DNA of 64,000 nt from Mobula hypostoma (Eukaryota): positions 6,510,001 to 6,574,000 of the forward strand of contig NC_086097.1 of NCBI RefSeq assembly GCF_963921235.1, written 5' to 3'. Shown here piece by piece: positions 1,061-61,592 of the stretch (position 1 is its first letter; each line of letters starts with the position of its first letter). The notes below the pieces were generated by a model. It saw only the letters and a list, made by a program, of their open reading frames with translations, did no database searches and had not been told where the DNA came from. The position numbers and the translations under genes were made by a program.

Positions 1061-1997
1061 TGTTGTCTAATTTTTCCATTAATCCTTTCTTTCCATTGAC
1101 AGGAAGCCCAGATTATATTTGGTATTCGTGCTGCTGTAACCCAGGTTACTTAAACCCAAAGATGTAGCATTAGAAAGCTCCACCAATGGAAGGATGAAAA
1201 TGAGGTTTACAGAATTTTTTTGTAAAAAGGAACTTGGGGAAAAAAAAGCTATGCGAGCACGGGGTGTGGTCAAGCAACAAAAATGCAGCGAACTATTAGA
1301 AACTAAAGATATAAACTGTTAAAAGAATTAGCAGTGAGTATCTCTACCCTACTTACTTGAGAACCTCAGGGTGAAACCCTGAGAGGAGAGATTATATCGA
1401 TAAAAGGTGTGTTGAACCTATGGGTATAATAAGCATCAGTTACAGCAAAACAATATCGGCAGGGACAAGTGTCCAAGACTGTACAGGGTAACCAGGAATT
1501 AGTTCTGTTAAATCCTACCAAGGATCTTGGTGAACTAAAACACTTCTACTGTTCAAAGTGTATAATCTGTGTGTGAAATATGTTCAGTAGTCTTGTAACA
1601 GAGAAGTGTTTGGAAATGAGATTGTGATATTGAGTTATTTTTGAAATCGAAAATAGAATGCAAAGAACTTATGCATTCTAATCCTGTTGTATACAGATCA
1701 GGTTTTATTGTGTAAGTATTGTGAATCAACCTTCCATCCTACGAACCAAGAAACAAGATGGCGAGCCAACCAAGATCGAAGAGTCAGCGCGGGAGTGAAA
1801 CTTTCATGACGTAGAGGATTTAATACGTTGGATGTAAAAGTTTAATTTTCATTCAAAGAATCTAAATTTGATTTTCTTGAAGAACTGATAATTTGCAAGA
1901 ACTTTGATAAGTTACTGAATTAGATTTACTTTGTTTAAATATAGTGATTTTGAGGAATTGTTGTGAAAGGAGTTAAGCTGTGTATATGTGTGTGTAC

Positions 1998-15209: not shown

Positions 15210-16430
15210 AGTTTCAAACTCCTGGGAGTGCACATCTCGCACAAACTCTCCTGGTCCCAAAACATATTGTGCACAATCAGGAAAGTTAACCAATGCCGCT
15301 CCTATCTCTGGGAGCTGAGGAGAGCTGGGCTATGCACATCTATATTCACATCATTCTACAGGATGCAGTAGAGAGCATCCCAACCGGCTGCCCCCAGTGT
15401 GGCCTCCTCAATATCGATGAAGCCAGATGTAGATGGGGAGACTATTTCGCTGAGCACCCACACTCCATCCACCAAAAAAGTAGGATCTCCCAGAGGCCTC
15501 TCATTTTAATTCCACTTCCCATTCCCATTCTGATATAACATTCCATAGCCTCCTCTACTGTCTCGATGAGGTCACACTCACGTTGGAGGAACAACACCCT
15601 ATATTCCGTCTGGGTAGCTTCCAACCTGATGGCATGAACATTGATTTCTTCAACTTCTGGTAATGACCCCCTCCCCTCCCTTCACCAGTCCCTATCCCCT
15701 TTTCCCTCTCTCACCTTATCTCCTTGCCTGCCCATCGCCTCCCTCTGGTGCTTCTTCCCACTTTTCTTTCTTCCATGGCCTTCTGTTCTCTCCTTTCAAA
15801 CTCTCCCTTCTTCAGCCCTGTATCTCTTCCACCAATCAACTTCCCAGCTCTTTACGTCATTACTCCTCCTCCTGGTTTCACCTGTCACCTTGCCTTTCTC
15901 TCTCCCCTCCCCCACCTTGTAAATCTACTCCTCATCTTTTTTTCTCCAGTCTTGCCGAAGGGGCTCAGCCCAAAATGTCCCCTGTACCTTTTTCCGTAGA
16001 TGCTGCCTGCCTGCTGAGTTCCATCTCTGCATGATGTGGAAACTGCACTGTAGCAGATGGGAAGGCATTACAACAGGTAGTCAAAACTGCCCAACGTATC
16101 ACTGGCACCAGTCTGCATGCAAGGACATATATATATATAGAAAAGTGCATCAGGGTGGAAGCTACGTAACATCCACACCAGGGCCACCAGACTCAAAAAC
16201 AGTTGCTTTCCCCAAGCAGCAACTCTGATCAACACCTCCACCCACTAACGCACCATCCACACCCCCAACCACCACCATTTTATCACTTCCAGTCAGAGTC
16301 ACCTTATGTACAGACACTCCTGTACCCAGCGTCACTTTATAGACATACAATCAGTCAATGTACAGTATATAAACTATCTTAGATATTTATATTTATTATG
16401 TCTTTTTTAATATTGTGTTTTTTGTGTTGT
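15210..16430 (+). mobile_element. Rex1/Babar-type 3' part split by a Penelope-like insert (about 15391-16021)
   Basis: ESIPTGC stops at 15390 and the I.A..GNCT continuation resumes at about 16022. The insert carries GIY-YIG C-terminal sequence, a pyrimidine-rich terminal repeat and a decayed hammerhead at about 15947-15985. Confidence 0.8.
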
Positions 16431-16512: not shown

Positions 16513-16580
16513 TGGCGCGTGGCCAAGTGGTTAAGGCATCAGTCTAATAATCTGAAGGTTGCTAGTTCAAGCCTCAGCTG
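16513..16580 (+). mobile_element. tRNA-derived SINE head (not an intact tRNA)
   Basis: A-box TGGCCAAGTGG and B-box-like AGTTCAAGCC; acceptor and anticodon stems do not close. Confidence 0.55.
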
Positions 16581-23908: not shown

Positions 23909-24384
23909 CGAGGGGTGATTGATAGTTCGTAGTCTAAGGTAGAAGGAGTCAATTTTAGAAAACCTAGCACATTTATTTTTCAACATAGTCCCCTCCTACA
24001 TTTACACACTTAGTCCAGCAGTTGTGGAGCATATGGATCTTGGAGCCCCCGAAAGCGTCCACAGCAGGGGTGATTGATAAGTTCGTGGCCTAAGGTAGAA
24101 GGAGATGAGTTATTAACTGCAAACTTTCTGCATAATCACTCAAAGCATTGCATTGCATGTGCATGTAACAAGTGCTGTATAACTCATCTCCTTCTACCTT
24201 AGGCCACTAACTTATCAATTACCCATGCTGTGGACACTTTCTGGAGGTCCAAGATCCGTATGCTCCATGACCGCTGGACTAAGTGTGTAAATGTAGTAGG
24301 GGACTATGTTGAAAAATAAATGTGCTAGGTTTTCTAAAATTGACTCCTTCTACTTTAGGCCACAAACTTATCAATCACCCCTCT
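23909..24384. mobile_element. Tc1/mariner-type foldback MITE, 476 bp
   Basis: TA (23907-08) CGAGGGGTGATTGA...TCAATCACCCCTCT TA (24385-86); inverted arms of about 205 bp (23909-24113, 24179-24384) around a 65-bp spacer. Confidence 0.92.
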
Positions 24385-25339
24385 TATGTTGAGGTAGATT
24401 GTGTGATAAAGGGTTCATCTCATTTTACAATAGTTTTGTTCAGTCATCTTATAATAGCAGGATAGAAGCTGTCCTGTGAATCTGTGGAATTCATTGCCAC
24501 GTTTGGCTGTGGAGGCCAAGAAATTGGATACATTTAAAGTGAAGTTTGATATGTTCTTGATTACTTCAAGGGTACAGGGAGAATGCAGGAGAGTGAAGTT
24601 GAGAAGGGAAGTAAAGTCAGTTCTGAGGTGGCTGAAGGAGCTAAACTGAGAATTACTGACTCTTCCATTGATGAGGCATGGAGGTGGGTTGTGTGTAACG
24701 GGGTACATTACTTCCACCATTACCGCAGACCCTCTGTGTGCTCACAGTGCATGGCCTTGAGATGGACATACACTTTCTCCATCTCAATAAGTTATGCACC
24801 AGGGATTCCCAGTCAATGAGGACATTTCACTTTCTCTAATAGGTCGTAAACCCACCTCCTCCCTGCTCAGTCTCATGGACTAGATTCATTTTTAAGGGAG
24901 GGAAAAATGCCAGGGGCCTGGAAAATATTAAGCATAGCCATCATTTGGATGAACAAGTTTTATTACAGCACGACAAGAGTACATCTGGTGTATTATTCCC
25001 ATTTTAGCATTTTGAAAGTTTTTGTTTTAAATCTGACACCCCTGCTTGCTGGTGGCATTTTTAGATTCCTTGCCAAAAGCCTGTCTAATTTCATTTTAAT
25101 GCAATTATCTTCTATCCCCTCCTCAGGTAGTACTTTAGAGCCTGACAATTCTCTGAGAGAAAGTGCTTCTCCTTCTGTGACCCTGCATTCTATCACCAAT
25201 AATATTGAATGACCTTTGCTTATTACCCATTTGTCAACAAGAATTGAGATTCTCTGTATTGAAATGTCAGCTTGAAATCTCGGTATGAATGTTGTGCTGG
25301 GAGGGGCACCAGTTCTACACTCTGCCTCTTGTCTTCACC

Positions 25340-25842
25340 ATTGTGGTGGTTGTCCATCACGAGCAGCAATGACAGGAAACCTGTGCGGGAGAGTTTTTAA
25401 AGTGGAAAAGCCGTTGCGCTCGAAAGTTCCGTCGTCTTGACCTCAGAAGTCAGTGTCCAGTGGAAGGAGTGGACATCACCAGCTGGGGTCTTCCTTGGTT
25501 ACAGTGGATGATCATGACTTCTTCTGTGCCTTGTCATGCCCTTCGTTCTCCTCGGAGCATTGTAGTACTGTAGATCTCATCCTTCCGGTCCACGGGAGCA
25601 GACTTCACATACTAGGACAGGCATGTCCCTATCACAGCGCATAAGAGGCCACTGGCTACTCTCACCTGGCTTAGCCCACTGTTGAAGCGGTGTATCAAGG
25701 TGTGGCCATTGTCACATGCAAACAGCTACTTGGAGCCACAGGTGAGAGCGAGTGTTCGGTGGGGATCAAAAGTGAGTGAGCTGCCCTGGAATGGACATGA
25801 CAAGCTCCTTCAGCAGAGGTATTACCCCTCTCTGGACAGCCC
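25340..25842 (-). mobile_element. Non-coding element, probably derived from an RTE-type 5' UTR, starting with an HDV-like fold
   Basis: GC-richer block without a credible ORF; HDV-like elements at its minus-strand 5' end. The RTE assignment is by resemblance only. Confidence 0.5.
25659..25842 (-). ncRNA. Candidate HDV/CPEB3-like self-cleaving ribozyme
   Basis: Minus-strand order: P1 GGGCTGT / J1-2 of about 87 nt / P2 CTCTCACCTG / P3 GGC / L3 TCCAAGT plus insert / P3' GCC / P1' ACACCTT / GA / P4 CCGCT-TCAAC-AGTGG / J4-2 GCTAA / P2' (GC)CAGGTGAGAG. Confidence 0.65.
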
Positions 25843-25942
25843 AGATACCCTCATCACATTGATAAGCCACTCTAGATTTTATCCAAATCTTTTTACATTT
25901 ACATTTCATATCTCCAGTGTTCTCCAGTCGGGTGTACATGAG

Positions 25943-26647
25943 CCCCAGACAGTCCTTCCAAGTGAGGCAACACTTCACTTGTGAGTCTGTTGGAGTCATC
26001 TATTGCATACGGTGCTCCTGGTGCGGCCTCCTCTACATCGGTGAAACCCGACGCAGATTAGGGGACCGCTTCGTCGAGCACCTCTGCTCTGTCCGCCACA
26101 ACAGACAGGATCTTCCGGTTGCCAACCACTTCAACTCTGCTTCCCACTCCCATTCAGATATGTCCATACATGGCCTCCTCTACTGCCATGATGAGGCTAA
26201 ACTCAGGTTGGAGGAGCAACACCTTATATACCGTCTGGGTAGTCTCCAGCCCCTTGGTATGAACATAGAATTCTCCAACTTCTGGTAATTCCCTCCCCCT
26301 CCCTTCCCCTATCCCTATTTCACTCTGCCCCCTCCTCCAGCTGCCTATCACCCCCCTCATGGTTCCGCCTCCTTCTACTACCCATTGTGTTTTCCCCTAC
26401 TCTTTCTTCACCTTTCCTGCCTATCACCTCCCTGCTTCCCCTCCCCCACCCCTTTATCTTTCCCCTTACTGGTTTTTCACCTGGAACCTACCAGCCTTCT
26501 CCTTCCCACCCTCTCCCCACCTTCTTTATAGGGCCTCTGCCCCCTCCCTCTACAGTCTTGACGAAGGGTTCCGGCCCGAAACGTCGACCGACCTTTTCCA
26601 CGGATGCTGCCCGACCTGCTGAGTTCCTCCAGCGTGTTGTGAGTGTT
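25943..26647 (+). mobile_element. Young Penelope-like element, 5'-truncated (GIY-YIG, terminal repeat, hammerhead)
   Basis: ORF 25917-26288 FTCESVGVIYCIRCSWCGLLYIGETRRRLGDRFVEH..PLGMN; perfect 13-bp TSD GGGTGTACATGAG at 25930-25942 and 26648-26660. Confidence 0.95.
26553..26590 (+). ncRNA. Minimal hammerhead motif, C3U variant
   Basis: CAGTC-TTGACGA-A-GGG-TTCCGG-CCC-GAAA-C-GTC-GACCG. Confidence 0.6.
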
Positions 26648-36627: not shown

Positions 36628-37450
36628 CTTCCCCACTGACCTCCCTCCTGGCACTTATTCTTGCAAGCAGAACAAGTGCTACACCTGCCCCTACACCTCC
36701 TCCATCACTACCATTCAGAGCCCCAAGCAGTCCTTCCAGGTGAGGCGATGCTTCACCTGTGAGGCTGTTGGGGTCATATACTCTGTCTGGTGCTCCTGGT
36801 GTGGCCTCTTGTATATTGGTGAGACCCAGCGTAGATTGGTAGACTGTTTCGTTGAGCACCTACATTCCGTCTGCCAGAAGAATGGGATCTCCCAGTGGCC
36901 ACCTATTTTATTTACACTTCCCATTCCCATTCCAATATGTCAATCCATGGCCTCCTCTACTGTCACGCTGAGGCCAAACTCAAGTTGGAGGAACACCTTA
37001 TATTCCGTCTGGGTGGCCTCCAACCTGATGGCATAAACATCGATTTCTCAAACTTCTGGTAATGCCCTCCCCCGGTCCTTCACCATTCCCCATCCCTTTT
37101 TCCCTCTCTCACCTTATCTCCTTGCCTGTCCATCTCCCGCCTCTGGTTCTCCTCCCCCTTTTCTTTCTTCCAAGGCCTTCTGTCTTCTATTATCAGACTC
37201 CGAATTCTCCAGCCCTGTATCTTTTTCACCAGTCAACTTCCCAGCTCTCTCTTCACACCAACCTCTCCCGGTTTCACCTATCACTTTGTGTTTCTCCCTC
37301 CTCTCTCCATCCCCCCCACACCTTATAAATCTACTCCTCATCTCTTTTTTTTTCTCCAGTCCTGCCGAGGAACCTTGGCTCAAATCGTCGACTTTACTTT
37401 TTCTCCATAGACGCTGCCTGCCCTACTAAGTTCCTCCAGCATTTTGTGTG
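36628..37450 (+). mobile_element. Penelope-like element (GIY-YIG, terminal repeat), inverted relative to 35392-36608
   Basis: PGTYSCKQNKCYTCPY..FTCEAVGVIYSVWCSWCGLLYIGETQRRL (36623-37036). Confidence 0.92.
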
Positions 37451-37993: not shown

Positions 37994-40509
37994 AGCAGTT
38001 ATAATGGGTGACTTCAATCTGCATGTAGATTGGGTGAACCAAATTGGTAAAGGTGCTGAGGAAGAGGATTTCTTGGAATGTATGCGGGATGGTTTTTTGA
38101 ACAAACATGTCGAGGAACCAACTAGAGAGTAGGCTATTCTGGACTGGGTTTTGAGCAATGAGGAAGGGTTAATTAGCAATCTTGTCGTGAGAGGCCCCTT
38201 GGGTAAGAGTGACCATAATATGGTGGAATTCTTCATTAAGATGGAGAGTGACATAGTTAATTCAGAAACAAAGGTTCTGAACTTAAAGAGGGGTAACTTT
38301 GAAGGTATGAGACGTGAATTAGCTAAGATAGACTGGCAAATGACACTTAAAGGATTGACGGTGGATATGCAATGGCAAGCATTTAAAGGTTGCATGGATG
38401 AACTACAACAATTGTTCATCCCAGTTTGGCAAAAGAATAAATCAAGGAAGGTAGTGCACCCGTGGCTGACAAGAGAAATTAGGGATAGTATCAGTTCCAA
38501 AGAAGAAGCATACAAATTAGCCAGAGAAAGTGGCTCACCTGAGGACTGGGAGAAATTCAGAGTTCAGCAGAGGAGGACAAAGGGCTTAATTAGGAAGGGG
38601 AAAAAAGATTATGAGAGAAAACTGGCAGGGAACATAAAAACTGACTGTAAAAGCTTTTATAGATATGTAAAAAGGAAAAGACTGGTAAAGACAAATGCAG
38701 GTCCCCTACAGACAGAAACAGGTGAATTGATTATGGGGAGCAAGGACATGGTAGACCAATTGAATAATTACTTTGGTTCTGTCTTCACTAAGGAGGACAT
38801 AAATAATCTTCCAGAAATAGTAGGGGACAGAGGGTCCAGTGAGATGGAGGAACTGAGCGAAATACTTGTTAGTAGGGAAGTGGTGTTAGGTAAATTGAAG
38901 GGATTGAAGGCAGATAAATCCCCAGGGCCAGATGGTCTGCATCCTAGAGTGCTTAAGGAAGTAGCCCAAGAAATAGTGGATGCATTAGTGATAATTTTTC
39001 AAAACTCGTTAGATTCTGGACTAGTTCCTGAGGATTGGAGGGTGGCTAATGTAACCCCACTTTTTAAAAAAGGAGGGAGAGAGAAACCGGGGAATTATAG
39101 ACCGGTTAGCCTAACATCGGTGGTGGGGAAATTGCTGGAGTCAGTTATCAAAGATGTGATAACAGCACATTTGGAAAGCGGTGAAATCATTGGACAAAGT
39201 CAGCATGGATTTGTGAAAGGAAAATCATGTCTGACGAATCTCATAGAATTTTTTGAGGATGTAACTAGTAGAGTGGATAGGGGAGAACCAGTGGATGTGG
39301 TATATTTGGATTTTCAAAAGGCTTTTGACAAGGTCCCACACAGGAGATTAGTGTGCAAACTTAAAGCACACGGTATTGGGGGTAAGGTATTGATGTGGAT
39401 GGAGAATTGGTTAGCAGACAGGAAGCAAAGAGTGGGAATAAACGGGACCTTTTCAGAATGGCAGGCAGTGACCAGTGGGGTACCGCAAGGCTCAGTGCTG
39501 GGACCACAGTTGTTTACTATATATATTAATGACTTAGACGAGGGAATTAAATGCAGCATCTCCAAGTTTGCGGATGACACAAAGCTGGGCGGCAGTGTTA
39601 GCTGTGAGGAGGATGCTAAGAGGATGCAGAGTGACTTGGATAGGTTGGGTGAGTGGGCAAATTCATGGCAGATGCAATTTAATGTGGATAAATGTGAAGT
39701 TATCCACTTTGGTGGCAAAAATAGGAAAACAGATTATTATCTGAATGGTGGCCGATTAGGAAAAGGGGAGGTGCAACGAGACCTGGGTGTCATTATACAC
39801 CAATCATTGAAAGTGGGCATGCAGGTACAGCAGGTGGTGAAAAAGGCGAATGGTATGCTGGCATTTATAGCGAGAGGATTCGAGTACAGGAGCAGGGAGG
39901 TACTACTGCAGTTGTACAAGGCCTTGGTGAGACCACACCTGGAGTATTGTGTGCAGTTTTGGTCCCCTAATCTGAGGGAAGACATCCTTGCCATAGAGGG
40001 AGTACAAAGAAGGTTCACCAGATTGATTCCTGGGATGGCAGGACTTTCATATGCAGAAAGACTGGATGAACTGGGCTTGTACTCGTTGGAATTTAGAAGA
40101 TTGAGGGGGGATCTGATTGAAACATATAAAATCCTAAAGGGATTGGACAGGCTAGATGCAGGAAGATTGTTCCTGATGTTGGGGAACTCCAGAACGAGGG
40201 GTCACAGTTTGAGGATAAAGGGGAAGCCTTTTAGGACCGAGATTAGGAAAAACTTCTTCACACAGAGAGTGGAGAATCTGTGGAATTCACTGCCACAGGA
40301 AACAGTTGAGGCTAGTTCATTGGCTATATTTAAGAGGGAGTTAGATATGGCCCTTGTGGCTAAAGGGATCAGGGCGTATGGAGGGAAGGCTGGTGCAGGG
40401 TTCTGAGTTGGATGATCAGCCATGATCATAATAAATGGCAGTGTAGGCTCGAAGGGCCGAATGGCCTACTCCTGCACCTATTTTCTATATTTCTATGTTT
40501 CTATGTTTC
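37994..40509 (+). mobile_element. Young CR1 LINE, 5'-truncated in the endonuclease domain, 7-bp TSD TATGCAC
   Basis: TATGCAC at 37987-37993 and 40510-40516; (TTTCTATG)n tail. Confidence 0.97.
38151..40406 (+). CDS. CR1 ORF2 reverse transcriptase, 751-aa open frame lacking the endonuclease N-terminus
   Basis: KSPGPDG, NYRPVSLTS, QHGF, YLDFQKAFDKVPH, GVPQGSVLGP and KFADDTKL all intact. The frame starts at a TTG; an in-frame TAG near 38129 corresponds to CAG in the 8067 copy. Not autonomous. Confidence 0.9.
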   Translation: MSNEEGLISNLVVRGPLGKSDHNMVEFFIKMESDIVNSETKVLNLKRGNFEGMRRELAKIDWQMTLKGLTVDMQWQAFKGCMDELQQLFIPVWQKNKSRKVVHPWLTREIRDSISSKEEAYKLARESGSPEDWEKFRVQQRRTKGLIRKGKKDYERKLAGNIKTDCKSFYRYVKRKRLVKTNAGPLQTETGELIMGSKDMVDQLNNYFGSVFTKEDINNLPEIVGDRGSSEMEELSEILVSREVVLGKLKGLKADKSPGPDGLHPRVLKEVAQEIVDALVIIFQNSLDSGLVPEDWRVANVTPLFKKGGREKPGNYRPVSLTSVVGKLLESVIKDVITAHLESGEIIGQSQHGFVKGKSCLTNLIEFFEDVTSRVDRGEPVDVVYLDFQKAFDKVPHRRLVCKLKAHGIGGKVLMWMENWLADRKQRVGINGTFSEWQAVTSGVPQGSVLGPQLFTIYINDLDEGIKCSISKFADDTKLGGSVSCEEDAKRMQSDLDRLGEWANSWQMQFNVDKCEVIHFGGKNRKTDYYLNGGRLGKGEVQRDLGVIIHQSLKVGMQVQQVVKKANGMLAFIARGFEYRSREVLLQLYKALVRPHLEYCVQFWSPNLREDILAIEGVQRRFTRLIPGMAGLSYAERLDELGLYSLEFRRLRGDLIETYKILKGLDRLDAGRLFLMLGNSRTRGHSLRIKGKPFRTEIRKNFFTQRVENLWNSLPQETVEASSLAIFKRELDMALVAKGIRAYGGKAGAGF

Positions 40510-45848: not shown

Positions 45849-48800
45849 CTAGAAACATAGAAACCTGGAAAACCTACAGTACAATACACAATGCTGTGCT
45901 GAACATGTCCTTTCCTCAGAAATTACCTAAGATTACCTGTAGCCCTCTATTTTTCTAAGCTCTATTTACCTATCCAGGAGTCTCTTAAAAGACCCTATCG
46001 TATCCGCCTCCACCACTGTTACCAGCAGCCCTTTCCATGCACTCACCACTCTCTGCGTAAAACTTACCCCTGACATCTCCTCTGTACCTACCTCCAAGCA
46101 CCTTAAAACTGTGCCCTCTGGTGTTAGTCATTTCAGTCCTGGGAAAAAGCCACTGACTATCCACACGATCAATACTCCTCAACATCTTATACATCTCTAT
46201 CAGGTCACCTCTCATCCTCTGTAGCTCCAAGGAGAAAAGACTGAGATCACTCAACCTATTCTCATAAGGCATGCTCCCCAATCCAGGCAACATCCTTGTA
46301 AATCTTCTCTGCAGCCCTTCTATAGTTTCCACATCCTTCCTGTAGTGAGGTGACCAGAACTGAGCACAGTTCTCCAGGTGGGGTCTGACCGGGGTCCTAT
46401 ATAGCTGCAACATTACCTCTCAGCTCTTAAACTCAATCCCACGGTAGGTGAAGGCCAATGTTTCGTATGACTTCTTAACCACTGAGTCAACCTACGCAGC
46501 AGCTTTGAGTGTCCAATAGACTCAGACCCCAAGATCCCTCTGATCCTTCACACTGCCAACAGTCTTACCATGAATACTATATTCTGCCATCATATTTGAC
46601 CTACCAAAATGAACCACCTCACACTTATCTGGGTTGAACCCCATCTGCCATTCTCAGCCCAGTTTTGCATCCTATCGATGTCCCGCTGTAACCTCTGACA
46701 GCCCTCCACACTATCCACAACACCCCCAACCTTTGTATCATCAGCAAATTTACTAACCCATCCCCCAACTTCCTCATCTAGGTCATTTATAAAAATCACA
46801 AAGAGAAGGAGTCCCAGACAGATCCCTGAGGCACAACACTGGTCACCAATCTACATGTAGAATATGACTCATTCATAACCACTCTTTGCCTTCTGTGGGC
46901 AAGCCAATTCTGGACCTACAAAGCAAGGTCTCCTTTTATCCCATGCCCCCTTACATTCTCAATAAGCCTTGCATGAGGTACCTTATCAAAAGTCTTGCTG
47001 AAATCCATATACTCTACATCTACTGCTCTACCTTCATCAATGTGTTTAGTTACATCCTCAAAAAGTTCAATCAGGCTCATAAGGCACGACCTGCCTTTGA
47101 CAAACCCATGCTGACTATTCTTAATCATATTATGCCTCTCCAAATCTTCATAAATCCTGCCTCTCAGGATCTTTTCCATCAACTTATCAACCACTGAAGT
47201 AAGACTCACTGGTCTATCATTTCCTGGGCTATCTCTATGCCCTTTCTTGAATAAGTAAACAACATCTACAACCCTCCAATCCTCCAGAAGCTCTCCCATC
47301 TCCACTGATGATGAAAAGATCATTGCTAGAGGCTCAGCAATCTCCTCCCTCACTTCCCACAGTAGCTTGGAGGTACATCTCATCTAGTCCCGGAGACTTA
47401 TCCATTCTGATGTTTTCCAAAAGCTCCAGCACATCCTCTTTATTAATGTCTATATGTTCAAGCTTTCAATTCACTGTAAGTCATTCCTGCAGTCACCAAG
47501 ATCCTTTTTCATAGTGAATACTGAAGCAAAGTATTCATTAGGCCCTCTGCTATCTCCTCCGGTTCCATACCCACTTTTCCACTGTCACACTTGTTTGGTT
47601 TTATTCTCTCACATCTTATCCTCTTGCTCTTCACATACTTGTAGAATGCCTTGGGGTTTTCCTTAATCCTGCTCACCAAGGCCTTCTCACGACCTCTTCT
47701 GGCTCTCCTAATTTCATTCTTTAGCCCCTTCCGGCTAGCCTTATAATCTTATAATTTATAGCCTTATAATTTACCCCAACACTAAGCACATCTTTCCCTC
47801 TCCACCCCTCTCCACTTCCCGCAGGGATCGGTCCCTACGTGACTCCCTGGTCCACACATCCCTCCCCACGGATCTCCCACCCAGCACTTATCCCTGTAAG
47901 CGCAAGTGCTACACCTTATTTTTAATAAACGTCCGCCGCAACAGATAAGATCTCCCGGTAGCCACCCACTTCAACTCTGCTTCCCACTCCCATTCGGATG
48001 TGTCCATACATGGCCTCCTCTACTGCCATGATGAGGCTAAAGTCAGGTTGGAGGAGCAACACCTCATATACTGTCTAGGTAGTCTCCAGCCCCTTGGTAT
48101 GAACATAGAATTCTCCAACTTCCGGTAATTCCCTCCCCCTCCCTTCCTCTATCCCTATTTCACTCTGCCCCCTCCCCCAACTGCCTATCACCTCCCTCAT
48201 GGTTCCGCCTCCTTCTACTACCCATTGTGTTTTCCCCTATTCCTTCTTCACTTTTCGTGCCTATCACCTCCCTGCTTCCCCTCCCCCACCCCTTTATCTT
48301 TCCCCTTACTGGTTTTTCACCTGGAACCTACCGGCCTTCTCCTTCCCACCCTCCTCCCACCTTCTTTATAGGGCCTCCTCCTCTTCCCTCTTCATTCCTA
48401 ACGAAGGGTTCCGACCCGAAACGTCGACCGATCTTTTCCACGGATGCTGCCCGACCTGCTGAGTTCCTCCAGCGTGTTGTGAGTGTAGTCTTATAATCTT
48501 CTAGATCTTTATCATTACCTAGTTTTTTGAACCTTTTGTAAGCTTTTCTTTTCTTCTTGACTAGATTTTCAACACCATTTGTACCACGGTTCCTGTACCT
48601 TACCATCATTTCCCTGTATTATTGGAACGTTTCTATGCAGAACACCACGCAAATGTCCCCTGAACATTTGCCACATTTCTTCCGTACATTTCCCTGAGAA
48701 CATCTGTTTCCAATTTATGCTTCCAAGTTCCTGCCTGATAGCCTCATATTTACCCCCACTCCAATTAAATGGTTTTGTAATTTGTCTGTTTCTATCCCTC

Positions 48801-58827: not shown

Positions 58828-61592
58828 GGGCTGGGAAATGAATGTTCGGTGATATACGTCCTATCGAAAGGACAGACAGTTGGGCAGAGGGGGTGGAGTG
58901 GCTCTGTCGGTGAGGAATGAAATTCAGTCCCTTGCGAGGGGTGACATAGAATCAGGAGATATAGAGTCAATATGGATAGAACTGAGAAATTGTAAGGGCA
59001 AAAAGACCCTAATGGGAGTTATCTACAGGCCCCCAAACCGTAGCCTGGATGTAGGATGCAAGTTGAATCAAGAGTTAAAATTGGCATGTCGCAAAGGCAA
59101 AGCTACGGTTGTTATAGGGGATTTCAACATGCAGGTAGACTGGGAAAATCAGGTTGGTACTGGACCCCAAGAAAGGGAGTTTGTGGAGTGCCTCTGAGAT
59201 GGATTCTTAGAGCAGCTTGTACTGGAGCCTACCAGGGAGAAGGCAATTCTGGATCTAGTGTTGTGTAATGAACTGGATTTGATAAGGGAACTCGAGGTAA
59301 AGGAGCCATTAGGAGGTAGTGACCATAATATGATAAGTTTTAATCTACAATTTGAGAGGGAGAAGGGAAAATCAGTAGTGTCAGTATTACAGTTGAACAA
59401 AGGGGACTATGGAGCCATGAGGGAGGAGCTGGCCAAAGTTGACTGAAAAGATACCCTAGCAGGGATGACAGTGGAACAACAATGGCAGGTATTTCTGGGA
59501 ATAATACAGCAGGTGCAGGATCAGTTCATTCCAAAGAAGAAGAAAGATTCTAAGGAGAGTAAGGGGCGACTGTGTCTGACAAGGGAAGTCAAGGACAGTA
59601 TAAAAATAAAAGAGAGGAAGTATAACATAGCAAAGATGAGTGGGAAGCCAGAGGATTAGGAAACTTTTAAAGAGCAACAGAAAAAAATTAAAAAGGCAAT
59701 ACGGGGAGAAAACATAAGGTACAAAGGTAAGCTAGCCAAGAATATAAAGGAGGATAGTAAAAGCTTCTTTCAGTGTGTGAAGAGGAAAAAATTAGTTAAG
59801 ACCAAAGTTGGGCCCTTGAAGACAGAAATGGGTGAATTTATTATGGAGAACAAAGAAATTGCAGAGGAGTTGAACAGGTACTTTGGATCTGTCTTCACTA
59901 GGGAAGACACAAACAATCTCCCAGATGTAATAGTGACCAGGGGACCTGGGGAAACGGAGGAACTGAATGAAATTCACATTAGGCAGAAAATGGTGTTGGA
60001 TAGACTGATGGGACTGAAGGCTGATAAATCCCCATGGCTTGATGGTCTGCATCCCAGGGTACTTAAGGAGGTGGTTCCGGAAATCGTGGATGCATTGGTA
60101 ATCATTTTCGAATGTTCTATAGATTCAGGATCAGTTCCTGTGGATTGGAGGGTAGCTAATGTTATCCCACTTTGTAAGAAAGGAGGGAGAGAGAAAACAG
60201 GGAATTATAGACCAGTTAGTCTGACATCAGTAGTGGGGAAGATGCTGGAGTTAATTATAAAAGATGAAATAGCGGCAAATTTGGATAGCAGTAACAGGAG
60301 TGGTCTGAGTCAGCATGGATTTACCAAGGGGAAATTATGCTTGGCTAATCTTCTGGAATTTTTTGAGGATGTAACTATGAAACTGGAGAGAGCCAGTGGA
60401 TGTAGTGTACCTGGATTTTCAAAAAGCCTTTGATAAGGTCCCACATAGGAGATTAGTGGGCAAAATTGGAGCACATGGTATTGGGGGTAGGGTACTGACA
60501 TGGATAGAAAATTGGCTGGCAGTCAGGAAACGAAGAGTAGGGATTAACGGGTCCTTTTCAGAATGACAGGCAGTGACTAGTGGGGTACCGCAAGGCTCAG
60601 TGCTGGGACTGCAGCCATTTATACATTGTACATGAATGATTTAGATGAAGGGATTAAAAGTAACAAGAGCAATTTTGCAGATGACGCAAAGCTGGGTGGC
60701 AGTGTGAAATGTGAGGAGGATGTTATGAGAATGCAGGGTGACTTGGACAGGTTGGGTGAGTGGGCAGATGCAGTTTAATGTGGATAAATGTGAGGTTATC
60801 CACTTTGGTGGCAAGAACAGGAAGGCAGATTACTATCTGAATGGTGTCAAGTTAGGAAAAGGGGAAGTACAATGAGATCTAGGTGTCCTTGTTCATCAGT
60901 CACTGAAAGTAAGCATGCAGGTACAGCAGGCAGTGAAGAAAACTAATGACGTGTTGGCCTTCATAACAAGGGGAATTGAGTATAGGAGCAAAGAGGTCCT
61001 TCTGCAGTTGTACAGGGCCCTGGTGTGACCACACCTGGAGTATTGTGTGCAGTTTTGGTCTCCAAATTTGAGGAAGGACATTCTTGCTATTGAGAGAGTG
61101 CAGCGTAGGTTCATGAGGTTAATTCCCAGGATGGCGGGACTGTCATATGTTGAAAGATTGGAGCAACTGGGCTTGTATACACTGGAATTTAGAAGGATGA
61201 GCGGGGTTCAGATTGAAACATATAAGATTATTAAGGGATTGGACAAGCTAGAGGCAGAAAACACGTTCCCGATGTTGGGGGAGTCCAGAACCAAAGGCCA
61301 CAGTTTAAGAATAAGGGGTAGGCTATTTAGAACGGAGTTGAGGAAAAACTTTTTCACCCAGAGAGTGGTGGATCTGTGGAATGCTCTGCGTCAGAAGGCA
61401 GTGGAGGCCAAGTCTCTGGATGCTTTCAAGAAAGAGTTAGATAGAGCTCTGAAAGATAGTGGAGTCAAAGGATATGGTGAGAAGGCAGAAACGGGGTACA
61501 GATTGTGGATGATCGGCCATGATCGCAATGAATGGTGGTGCTGGCTCGAAGGGCCAAATGGCCTACTACTGCACCTATTGTCTATTGTCTAT
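58828..61592 (+). mobile_element. CR1 LINE ORF2 (EN-RT), 5'-truncated, with multiple stops and frameshifts
   Basis: GGGVALSV..WIELRN..IGDFN, SDHNM, NYRPVSLTS, QFWSPNLRKD..FFTQRVV; tail CTATTGTCTATTGTCTAT. Confidence 0.95.

Follow-up and report, generated by a model that had tools for sequence, protein, structure and literature searches.

A degraded 5' fragment of an RTE-like LINE in Mobula hypostoma and a candidate HDV-type ribozyme fold conserved among its relatives

We analyzed a 64,000-nt stretch of Mobula hypostoma DNA (NCBI RefSeq assembly GCF_963921235.1, contig NC_086097.1, positions 6,510,001 to 6,574,000; henceforth the window), in which an initial annotation, made from the letters alone, had placed a ribozyme candidate resembling those of hepatitis delta virus (HDV) and CPEB3 on the minus strand at 25842-25659. 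The candidate lies within the 5' end of an RTE-like long interspersed nuclear element (LINE), and its fold is conserved with compensatory changes among relatives of the element, on the coding strand and with helix P1 starting at the element's first base. The explanation that we favor, and hold to be reasonably likely, is that the locus is a degraded 5' fragment of such a LINE, whose relatives carry an HDV-type fold at their 5' ends that is predicted to self-cleave. Judged from the conserved letters and pairs, the fold is a probable novel structural variant of a known ribozyme class.

The repeat context of the candidate was read from contigs of three DNA runs from three coded organisms (including B and C) that were placed on positions 25000-26400 of the window. 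Many diverged contigs cover ~25343-25849, at a depth reaching at least 128 per site, whereas a single contig lies over each flank (25000-25328 and 25846-25939); the candidate is therefore inside an interspersed repeat. Single contigs of organisms B and C run through both repeat ends and on into unique flanking sequence (X5 records 17 and 21; X9 records 25 and 31), so the insertion is old and shared. Contig depth and the ends of homology delimit an RTE-like LINE 5' fragment of ~510 nt at 25851-25340 on the minus strand, which lacks an open reading frame (ORF) and contains the entire candidate. Homology to three DNA relatives (L001, L002 and L003, see below) stops at 25850, below 25340 there is no similarity to them, and the 64-kb window holds no second copy of the repeat. 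The locus thus reads as an ancient, degraded copy of the element's 5'-terminal ~510 nt, from which the downstream part including the ORF appears to have been lost. In many family contigs a segment of ~66 nt (25417-25483) is skipped or swapped for ~35 other letters, marking an indel or replaced segment. Run X19, guessed to be RNA, also has contigs on the repeat; these give neither strand nor ends and carry no inference on expression or cleavage.

Relatives of the repeat were reached through its translation. A search of the plus-frame read-through translation against 1.84 billion proteins returned seven short unnamed ORFs (best E 6.2e-10), which are translated copies of the repeat, and the conserved peptide core of these ORFs (A2) was used to retrieve DNA relatives from metagenome contigs among 44 candidate stretches. 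Over 145-274 nt the three relatives share 71-74% identity with the window. L002 and L003 form a close pair (94% identity), which leaves about three independent lineages in the alignment. Direct searches added nothing to this set: an exact 24-mer had no match in metagenome and viral contigs, a 14-base degenerate pattern hit 115 + 120 loci that were all chance (0 blastn matches among the 235), and neither the repeat nor its AP endonuclease (APE) had a relative among the viral contigs.

A pseudoknotted model of the candidate was scored on a trimmed alignment, A4, of 204 columns and four sequences (the window and L001-L003). Counting every modeled pair once per sequence, standard pairs occupy 123 of 128 cells (96.1%). 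Compensatory changes speak in favor of the fold: six pairs show them, two each in P1, P2 and P4, with P3 (GGC/GCC) invariant. Shuffles average 2.8 such pairs and get to six in 1 of 500 cases, and six slid controls have 0-1. RNAalifold, which was blind to the model, returned P2, P3, an additional hairpin in loop L3 and P4, together with a structured joining region J1/2. The 123 paired cells include eight G.U pairs, each of which would read A-C on the other strand; with the ORF found downstream, these cells assign the fold to the candidate's strand, which is the coding strand. The three relatives thus preserve, with covariation, the core of the initial annotation: a nested double pseudoknot of HDV type whose L3 carries a hairpin insertion on its 3' side.

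All of the letters first listed from P1 to P2' are present on the minus strand of the window, where the model reads as follows. The proposed 5' strand of P1 is AGGGTAT (GGGGTGT or GGGGTAT in the relatives) at 25851-25845, with predicted cleavage 5' of 25851. The long, structured J1/2 (25844-25749) contains RNAalifold helices with compensatory changes at four pairs (columns 40-79, 41-78, 42-77 and 50-75). P2, with CTCTCACCTG as its 5' strand (25748-25739), forms a perfect 10-bp helix with P2' (25668-25659), just as annotated, and pairs in 39/40 cells; P3 GGC (25737-25735) is invariant and pairs with P3' GCC (25706-25704) in 12/12. L3 starts TCCAAGT (25734-25728, letters read directly), and its 5' part, TCCAAGTA (25734-25727), follows the pattern UCCNNGNN, in which all four sequences keep the U and the G at +5 and three keep the CC, L003 having CU; the four sequences start UCCAAG, UCCCCG, UCCAAG and, for L003, UCUAAG. 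A 21-nt insert in L3 (25727-25707, also read directly) carries the extra hairpin between L3 and P3', which in the window copy is GCTGT/ACAAT plus G25707 (25726-25707); in L002 and L003 it is complete at 5 bp (GCUGU/ACAGC), and 18/20 cells are paired over the four sequences. P1' ACACCTT (25703-25697) abuts P3' on its 3' side by letters and alignment. The two nucleotides after P1', the 3' strand of P1.1 (25696-25695), read GG in L001, L002 and L003; the window alone has GA, which accounts for the unpaired cell among eight (7/8). The P4 hairpin CCGCT/AGTGG (25690-25676; strands 25690-86 and 25680-76) is paired in 20/20 cells. J4/2, GCTAAGC (25675-25669), contains the putative catalytic C25674 and conforms to G-C-N-A-A-R-C, with C.AA, and hence this C, invariant in 4/4. 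Two spacers had been drawn too short: P1' and P4 are separated by the six nucleotides GATACA and not by GA alone, and J4/2 has seven nucleotides instead of the five in GCTAA.

Two apparent irregularities in translated sequence were dismissed along the way. A P2 that seemed broken in the translated copy P0025, by codon inference from P0021 and P0025, is an alignment artefact, as L001, DNA of the same lineage, has an intact P2. An integrase zinc finger suspected in the minus-strand translation (WPxMxxD..CxxC) has no Pfam match and no homologue.

The position of the fold within the element agrees with the proposed location at the 5' end of a retroelement. Homology between loci ends at the first G of the P1 heptamer (position 2129 in L001, 465 in L002 and 1230 in L003) and the sequences upstream of this G differ between loci, so P1 starts where the homology stops; conserved downstream and differing upstream sequence is also what has been reported for retrotransposon HDV-like ribozymes (PMC6765202). 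On the candidate's strand, L001 and L003 have an Exo_endo_phos AP-endonuclease frame ~700-770 nt downstream (E 1.8e-11 and 1.1e-6). This ORF has 1196 homologues at E<=1e-20, and the best 120 of them are mostly proteins of ~1050-1070 aa combining APE with a reverse transcriptase (RT; RVT_1) on ~4-kb contigs; the few named among these 120 come from fishes, amphioxus, tapeworms and mantis shrimp. The APE+RT layout of the homologues points to an RTE-like LINE, the APE alone being read in L001 and L003 themselves. The element had been taken for a non-autonomous unit of ~500 bp, which does not hold for the relatives: they continue into the APE ORF, and the window retains a ~510-bp ORF-less 5' fragment. 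A reading of the candidate as a chance match antisense in a 5'-truncated LINE was discarded: the loose contig ends before 25369 match the window's own 25339-25368, and the relatives' ORF is on the candidate's strand.

Side observations on the coding region concern its start. The endonuclease stop-to-stop frames (L001 3-1373 and L003 3-557, both minus strand) have no Met in the ~40 residues preceding the domain, while database homologues of this endonuclease have an M just before it; the missing Met could reflect non-AUG or ribozyme-assisted initiation, or decay. In a predicted protein, P0056, the N-terminus translates the ribozyme region in antisense and is followed without a gap by an endonuclease truncated at its 5' end. 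Read from the protein sequence only, this looks like an inverted 5' segment that ends at the first bases of the element, with a junction resembling twin priming.

In the mechanism that we propose, the first ~200 nt of the element would fold in intact relatives as an HDV-type nested double pseudoknot in the order P1, structured J1/2, P2, P3, L3 UCCNNGNN, extra hairpin, P3', P1', GG (P1.1), P4, J4/2 G-C-N-A-A and P2'. A read-through transcript or host co-transcript would then use the HDV mechanism to cut itself 5' of the first G, the J4/2 cytosine acting as general acid together with a bound divalent ion, and the element RNA would be released with a 5'-OH, starting exactly at the element boundary. 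The retained 5' fold may also aid translation of the downstream ORF. Several hallmarks of HDV-like ribozymes are present: the double pseudoknot topology, P1' abutting P3', a C followed by A's in J4/2, and the U and G of L3 along with the pyrimidines for P1.1. Others are absent, namely a closed L3 of 7-8 nt, the G1-U37 wobble and a match to a curated covariance model.

The serious rival to the ribozyme reading is a conserved structure in the 5' untranslated region (5'-UTR) that does not cleave, be it a protein-binding site, a translation-initiation structure or RNA over an internal promoter, with the HDV letters partly a coincidence and the boundary a transcription start. We consider this account unlikely, and we take it seriously because of the departures in L3 and at the first P1 pair, because four sequences carry the comparison and because a transcription start would explain the boundary at P1 just as well. 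Several findings weigh on its side and against cleavage. Covariation indicates structure, not catalysis. Compared with LINE HDV-like ribozymes, the family's L3 measures 28-29 nt with a conserved 5-bp hairpin before P3', far beyond the known range; P1 opens with a G-C pair in the relatives and with A-U in the window; J4/2 exceeds its G-C-N-A-A core by 2 nt; and P1' is followed by a 6-nt spacer before P4. The relatives thus lack the cleavage-site wobble G1-U37, for which high conservation and importance for rate have been described (bioRxiv 10.1101/2022.09.22.508989). At gathering score, Rfam assigned no part of the window to HDV, CPEB3 or any other ribozyme family; at E<=10 no ribozyme model matched 25300-26200, and even at E<=10 the relatives gave no HDV-like, CPEB3, drz-type or other ribozyme match. 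The comparative set consists of four sequences of which two are 94% identical, columns 114, 152 and 192 covary along one phylogenetic split and also fit an extended P3, and RNAalifold offers a nested alternative that pairs the 5' end with columns 99-102. Moreover, LINE 5' ends can be promoters, as the first 77 nt of L1Tc are reported to be promoter and ribozyme in one (PMC3383444). Against a purely structural role stand a topology that is exactly that of HDV, in which P1 crosses P2 and P1' abuts P3', and a set of letters conserved across sequences 71-74% identical, comprising U..G in L3, CC/GG in P1.1 and C-N-A-A in J4/2; P1 also starts at base 1 of the element.

The choice of P1 separates the fold described here from the version first annotated, in which P1 was GGGCTGT at 25842-25836 (minus strand), cleavage fell 5' of G25842 and the element was the ~500-bp non-autonomous unit. 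The 5' end has two G-rich heptamers, 9 nt apart, of which this is the second. The upstream heptamer (25851-25845, A4 columns 1-7) pairs with P1' in 27/28 cells, including two pairs with a compensatory change. It pairs 7/7 in L001 (GGGGUGU/ACACCCC) and in L002 and L003 (GGGGUAU/AUACCCC), position 6 exchanging G-C for A-U among the relatives, and 6/7 in the window, with duplex energies of -9.9 to -11.8 kcal/mol in the relatives and -4.0 in the window. The downstream heptamer pairs with P1' in 25/28 cells, leaving 3/28 unpaired, without any compensatory change. It can instead pair with ACACCC directly before P2, closing J1/2, and may thus serve either as an alternative P1 or as the closing strand of the J1/2 domain. 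In the window copy its pairing with P1' does contain the C-C mismatch first described, and two G.U pairs where one had been counted. Because it covaries and coincides with the element boundary, we prefer the upstream heptamer, 25851-25845, as the better P1, which moves the predicted 5' end 9 nt upstream of G25842. We regard the first version as improbable. In its favor, GGGCTGT is the only one of the two heptamers that starts with G in the window, where it gives a first-pair G.U seen only there and only with this P1; it pairs with P1' in the relatives too (-8.0 to -11.2 kcal/mol); most family contigs end by ~25843-25849; and a possible flanking repeat of 8-9 nt, read by eye as TCACCATTG (25333-25341) and TCACATTG (25854-25861), would suit insertion of a 510-nt unit. 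Yet that repeat is imperfect, homology within the L001-L003 family runs 9 nt further, to the first heptamer, and the relatives' element does not end after ~500 bp.

Taken on its own, the window copy makes a weak case for a ribozyme, and its folding speaks against one. The 184-nt RNA has an ordinary minimum free energy (-58.9 kcal/mol, z = -0.13), with 82/200 shuffles as stable or more. P2, with pair probabilities of 0.41-1.0, is the sole thermodynamically stable helix of the candidate; P3 reaches 0.001, P4 0.011, and P1, P3 and P4 all stay at <=0.012. The P1 first annotated, taken alone, costs +3.29 kcal/mol and has a pair probability of 0, and a GGCU/AGCC helix lengthens the P2 hairpin and competes with P3. 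A loose descriptor, structure only and set as permissive as the original match, showed no enrichment: for P2>=6 it matched the window 31 times and each of 10 shuffles 48.8 times on average, for P2>=7 the figures were 11 and 13.5, and for P2>=8 they were 5 and 3.7. When the 10-bp P2 was kept and the remainder shuffled, 203/5000 shuffles still fit, as does the plus strand of the same inverted repeat. A strict descriptor that adds HDV-specific letters (L3 starting TCCNNG, G after P1', C.AA in J4/2) has the candidate as its single match in the window and matched 1/40 shuffled windows for P2>=5 and 2/40 for P2>=6. The idea that the likeness arose by chance in repeat DNA and reflects no conserved function at the RNA level could draw on the ordinary energy, the frequency of loose matches in shuffles and the plus-strand fit, and it is strongly disfavored, indeed very improbable, given the six compensatory pairs, the 96% pairing across relatives and the rarity of shuffled windows that match once HDV letters are required. 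The loose descriptor also fits 1502-1611 (plus strand; 10-bp P2, 6-nt L3), which fails the HDV-specific letters and is most likely a chance match.

The window copy itself is probably inactive as a ribozyme, as its letters differ from the relatives at several places. Position +1 is A where the relatives have G, and the upstream P1 contains an A-C mismatch; GA for GG removes one P1.1 pair; two pairs of the L3 hairpin are weakened; and a G at alignment column 190 creates the competing GGCU/AGCC helix. The suspicion that this copy is degraded, voiced at the outset on account of the GA and a mismatch in P1, was therefore well placed. The copy is a fossil, of value only as a pointer to its family.

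For the family we put forward, tentatively and as a possibility a little short of probable, a new HDV-like subclass in which L3 is opened and capped by a helix and G-C replaces G.U at the cleavage site. Its role would be 5'-end processing in an RTE-like LINE family of cartilaginous fish and at least two other lineages, and it would be missed by fixed-loop descriptors and by Rfam. A canonical HDV-like L3 has 7-8 nt, and search descriptors fix it at this length. The literature consulted turned up no L3-insertion variant and no elasmobranch HDV-like ribozyme, which is not proof of absence; earlier primary work may describe close RTE ribozymes. If the proposal is true, a helix in L3 and a G-C pair at the cleavage site widen the known tolerance of the HDV fold and mark a location where the active-site loop can be extended, and a re-search of genomes with a relaxed L3 is justified. 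Since fixed-loop descriptors and Rfam miss the L3-helix type, more such ribozymes may hide in animal genomes. A vertebrate-resident RTE-like LINE would then join the elements that apparently rely on ribozyme 5' processing.

The fragment has further repeats for neighbors. Outside the ribozyme lies a 5'-truncated Penelope-like element on the plus strand at 25942-26288 (fragment to 26470), with a GIY-YIG endonuclease domain (Pfam GIY-YIG, 22.8 bits, E 1.1e-4) encoded in the reading frame 25866-26288 (+); tblastn homology starts at 25944 and loose contig ends lie before 25942. The best protein matches of this neighboring gene fragment come from rays and sharks. The window holds five such Penelope-like fragments, all of the GIY-YIG end, at 25942-26470 (+), 47931-48239 (+), 36718-37149 (+), 36092-35656 (-) and 15389-15749 (+), the pair near 36 kb being head to head. 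Other LINE RT remnants at 38136-40169 (+), 63675-62257 (-), 5083-4169 (-), 59660-60334 (+) and 55480-54782 (-) are 21-40% identical to the RTE-like proteins; the remnant at 5083-4169 matches best the C-terminal third of these proteins. A tRNA-like match at 16518-16580 (+), scoring 29.1 bits against an Rfam gathering score of 29, may be a SINE head. At 24000-24292 a MITE-like 114-nt inverted repeat is 90% complementary with arms 65 nt apart, and a third related copy, of 39 nt, lies at 24344-24382.

HDV-like ribozymes at LINE 5' ends, RTE included, have already been reported (PMC6765202), and it is these that the candidate resembles most broadly. With the 5'-end ribozymes of R2, R4, baggins, RTE and L1Tc it shares the nested double pseudoknot with P1' directly after P3', a J4/2 in which C is followed by A's, the U..G of L3 and a P1.1 formed with the two nucleotides after P1', a long and variable J1/2, and a fold that begins at the LINE's first base with unrelated DNA upstream. 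J1/2 is reported to range from 23 to >700 nt in active R2 ribozymes, where J1/4 has 0-2 nt (PMC3774820), and non-Watson-Crick P1.1 pairs are reported to be tolerated in fast ribozymes (bioRxiv 10.64898/2026.02.27.708514). The CPEB3 and the genomic and antigenomic HDV ribozymes have the same helices, the L3 pattern U-C/U-C-N-N-G and the catalytic cytosine in J4/2; they differ in being compact, at a reported 67-85 nt (bioRxiv 10.1101/2022.09.22.508989), with an L3 of 7-8 nt and a short J1/2, and in being intronic or viral and not at a transposon 5' end. Twister variants at RTE 5' ends, those of Perere-3 in Schistosoma, have been assigned the same proposed job in 5' processing (PMC8501958, PMC7761336); their fold is unrelated, and no twister model matches the window or its relatives.
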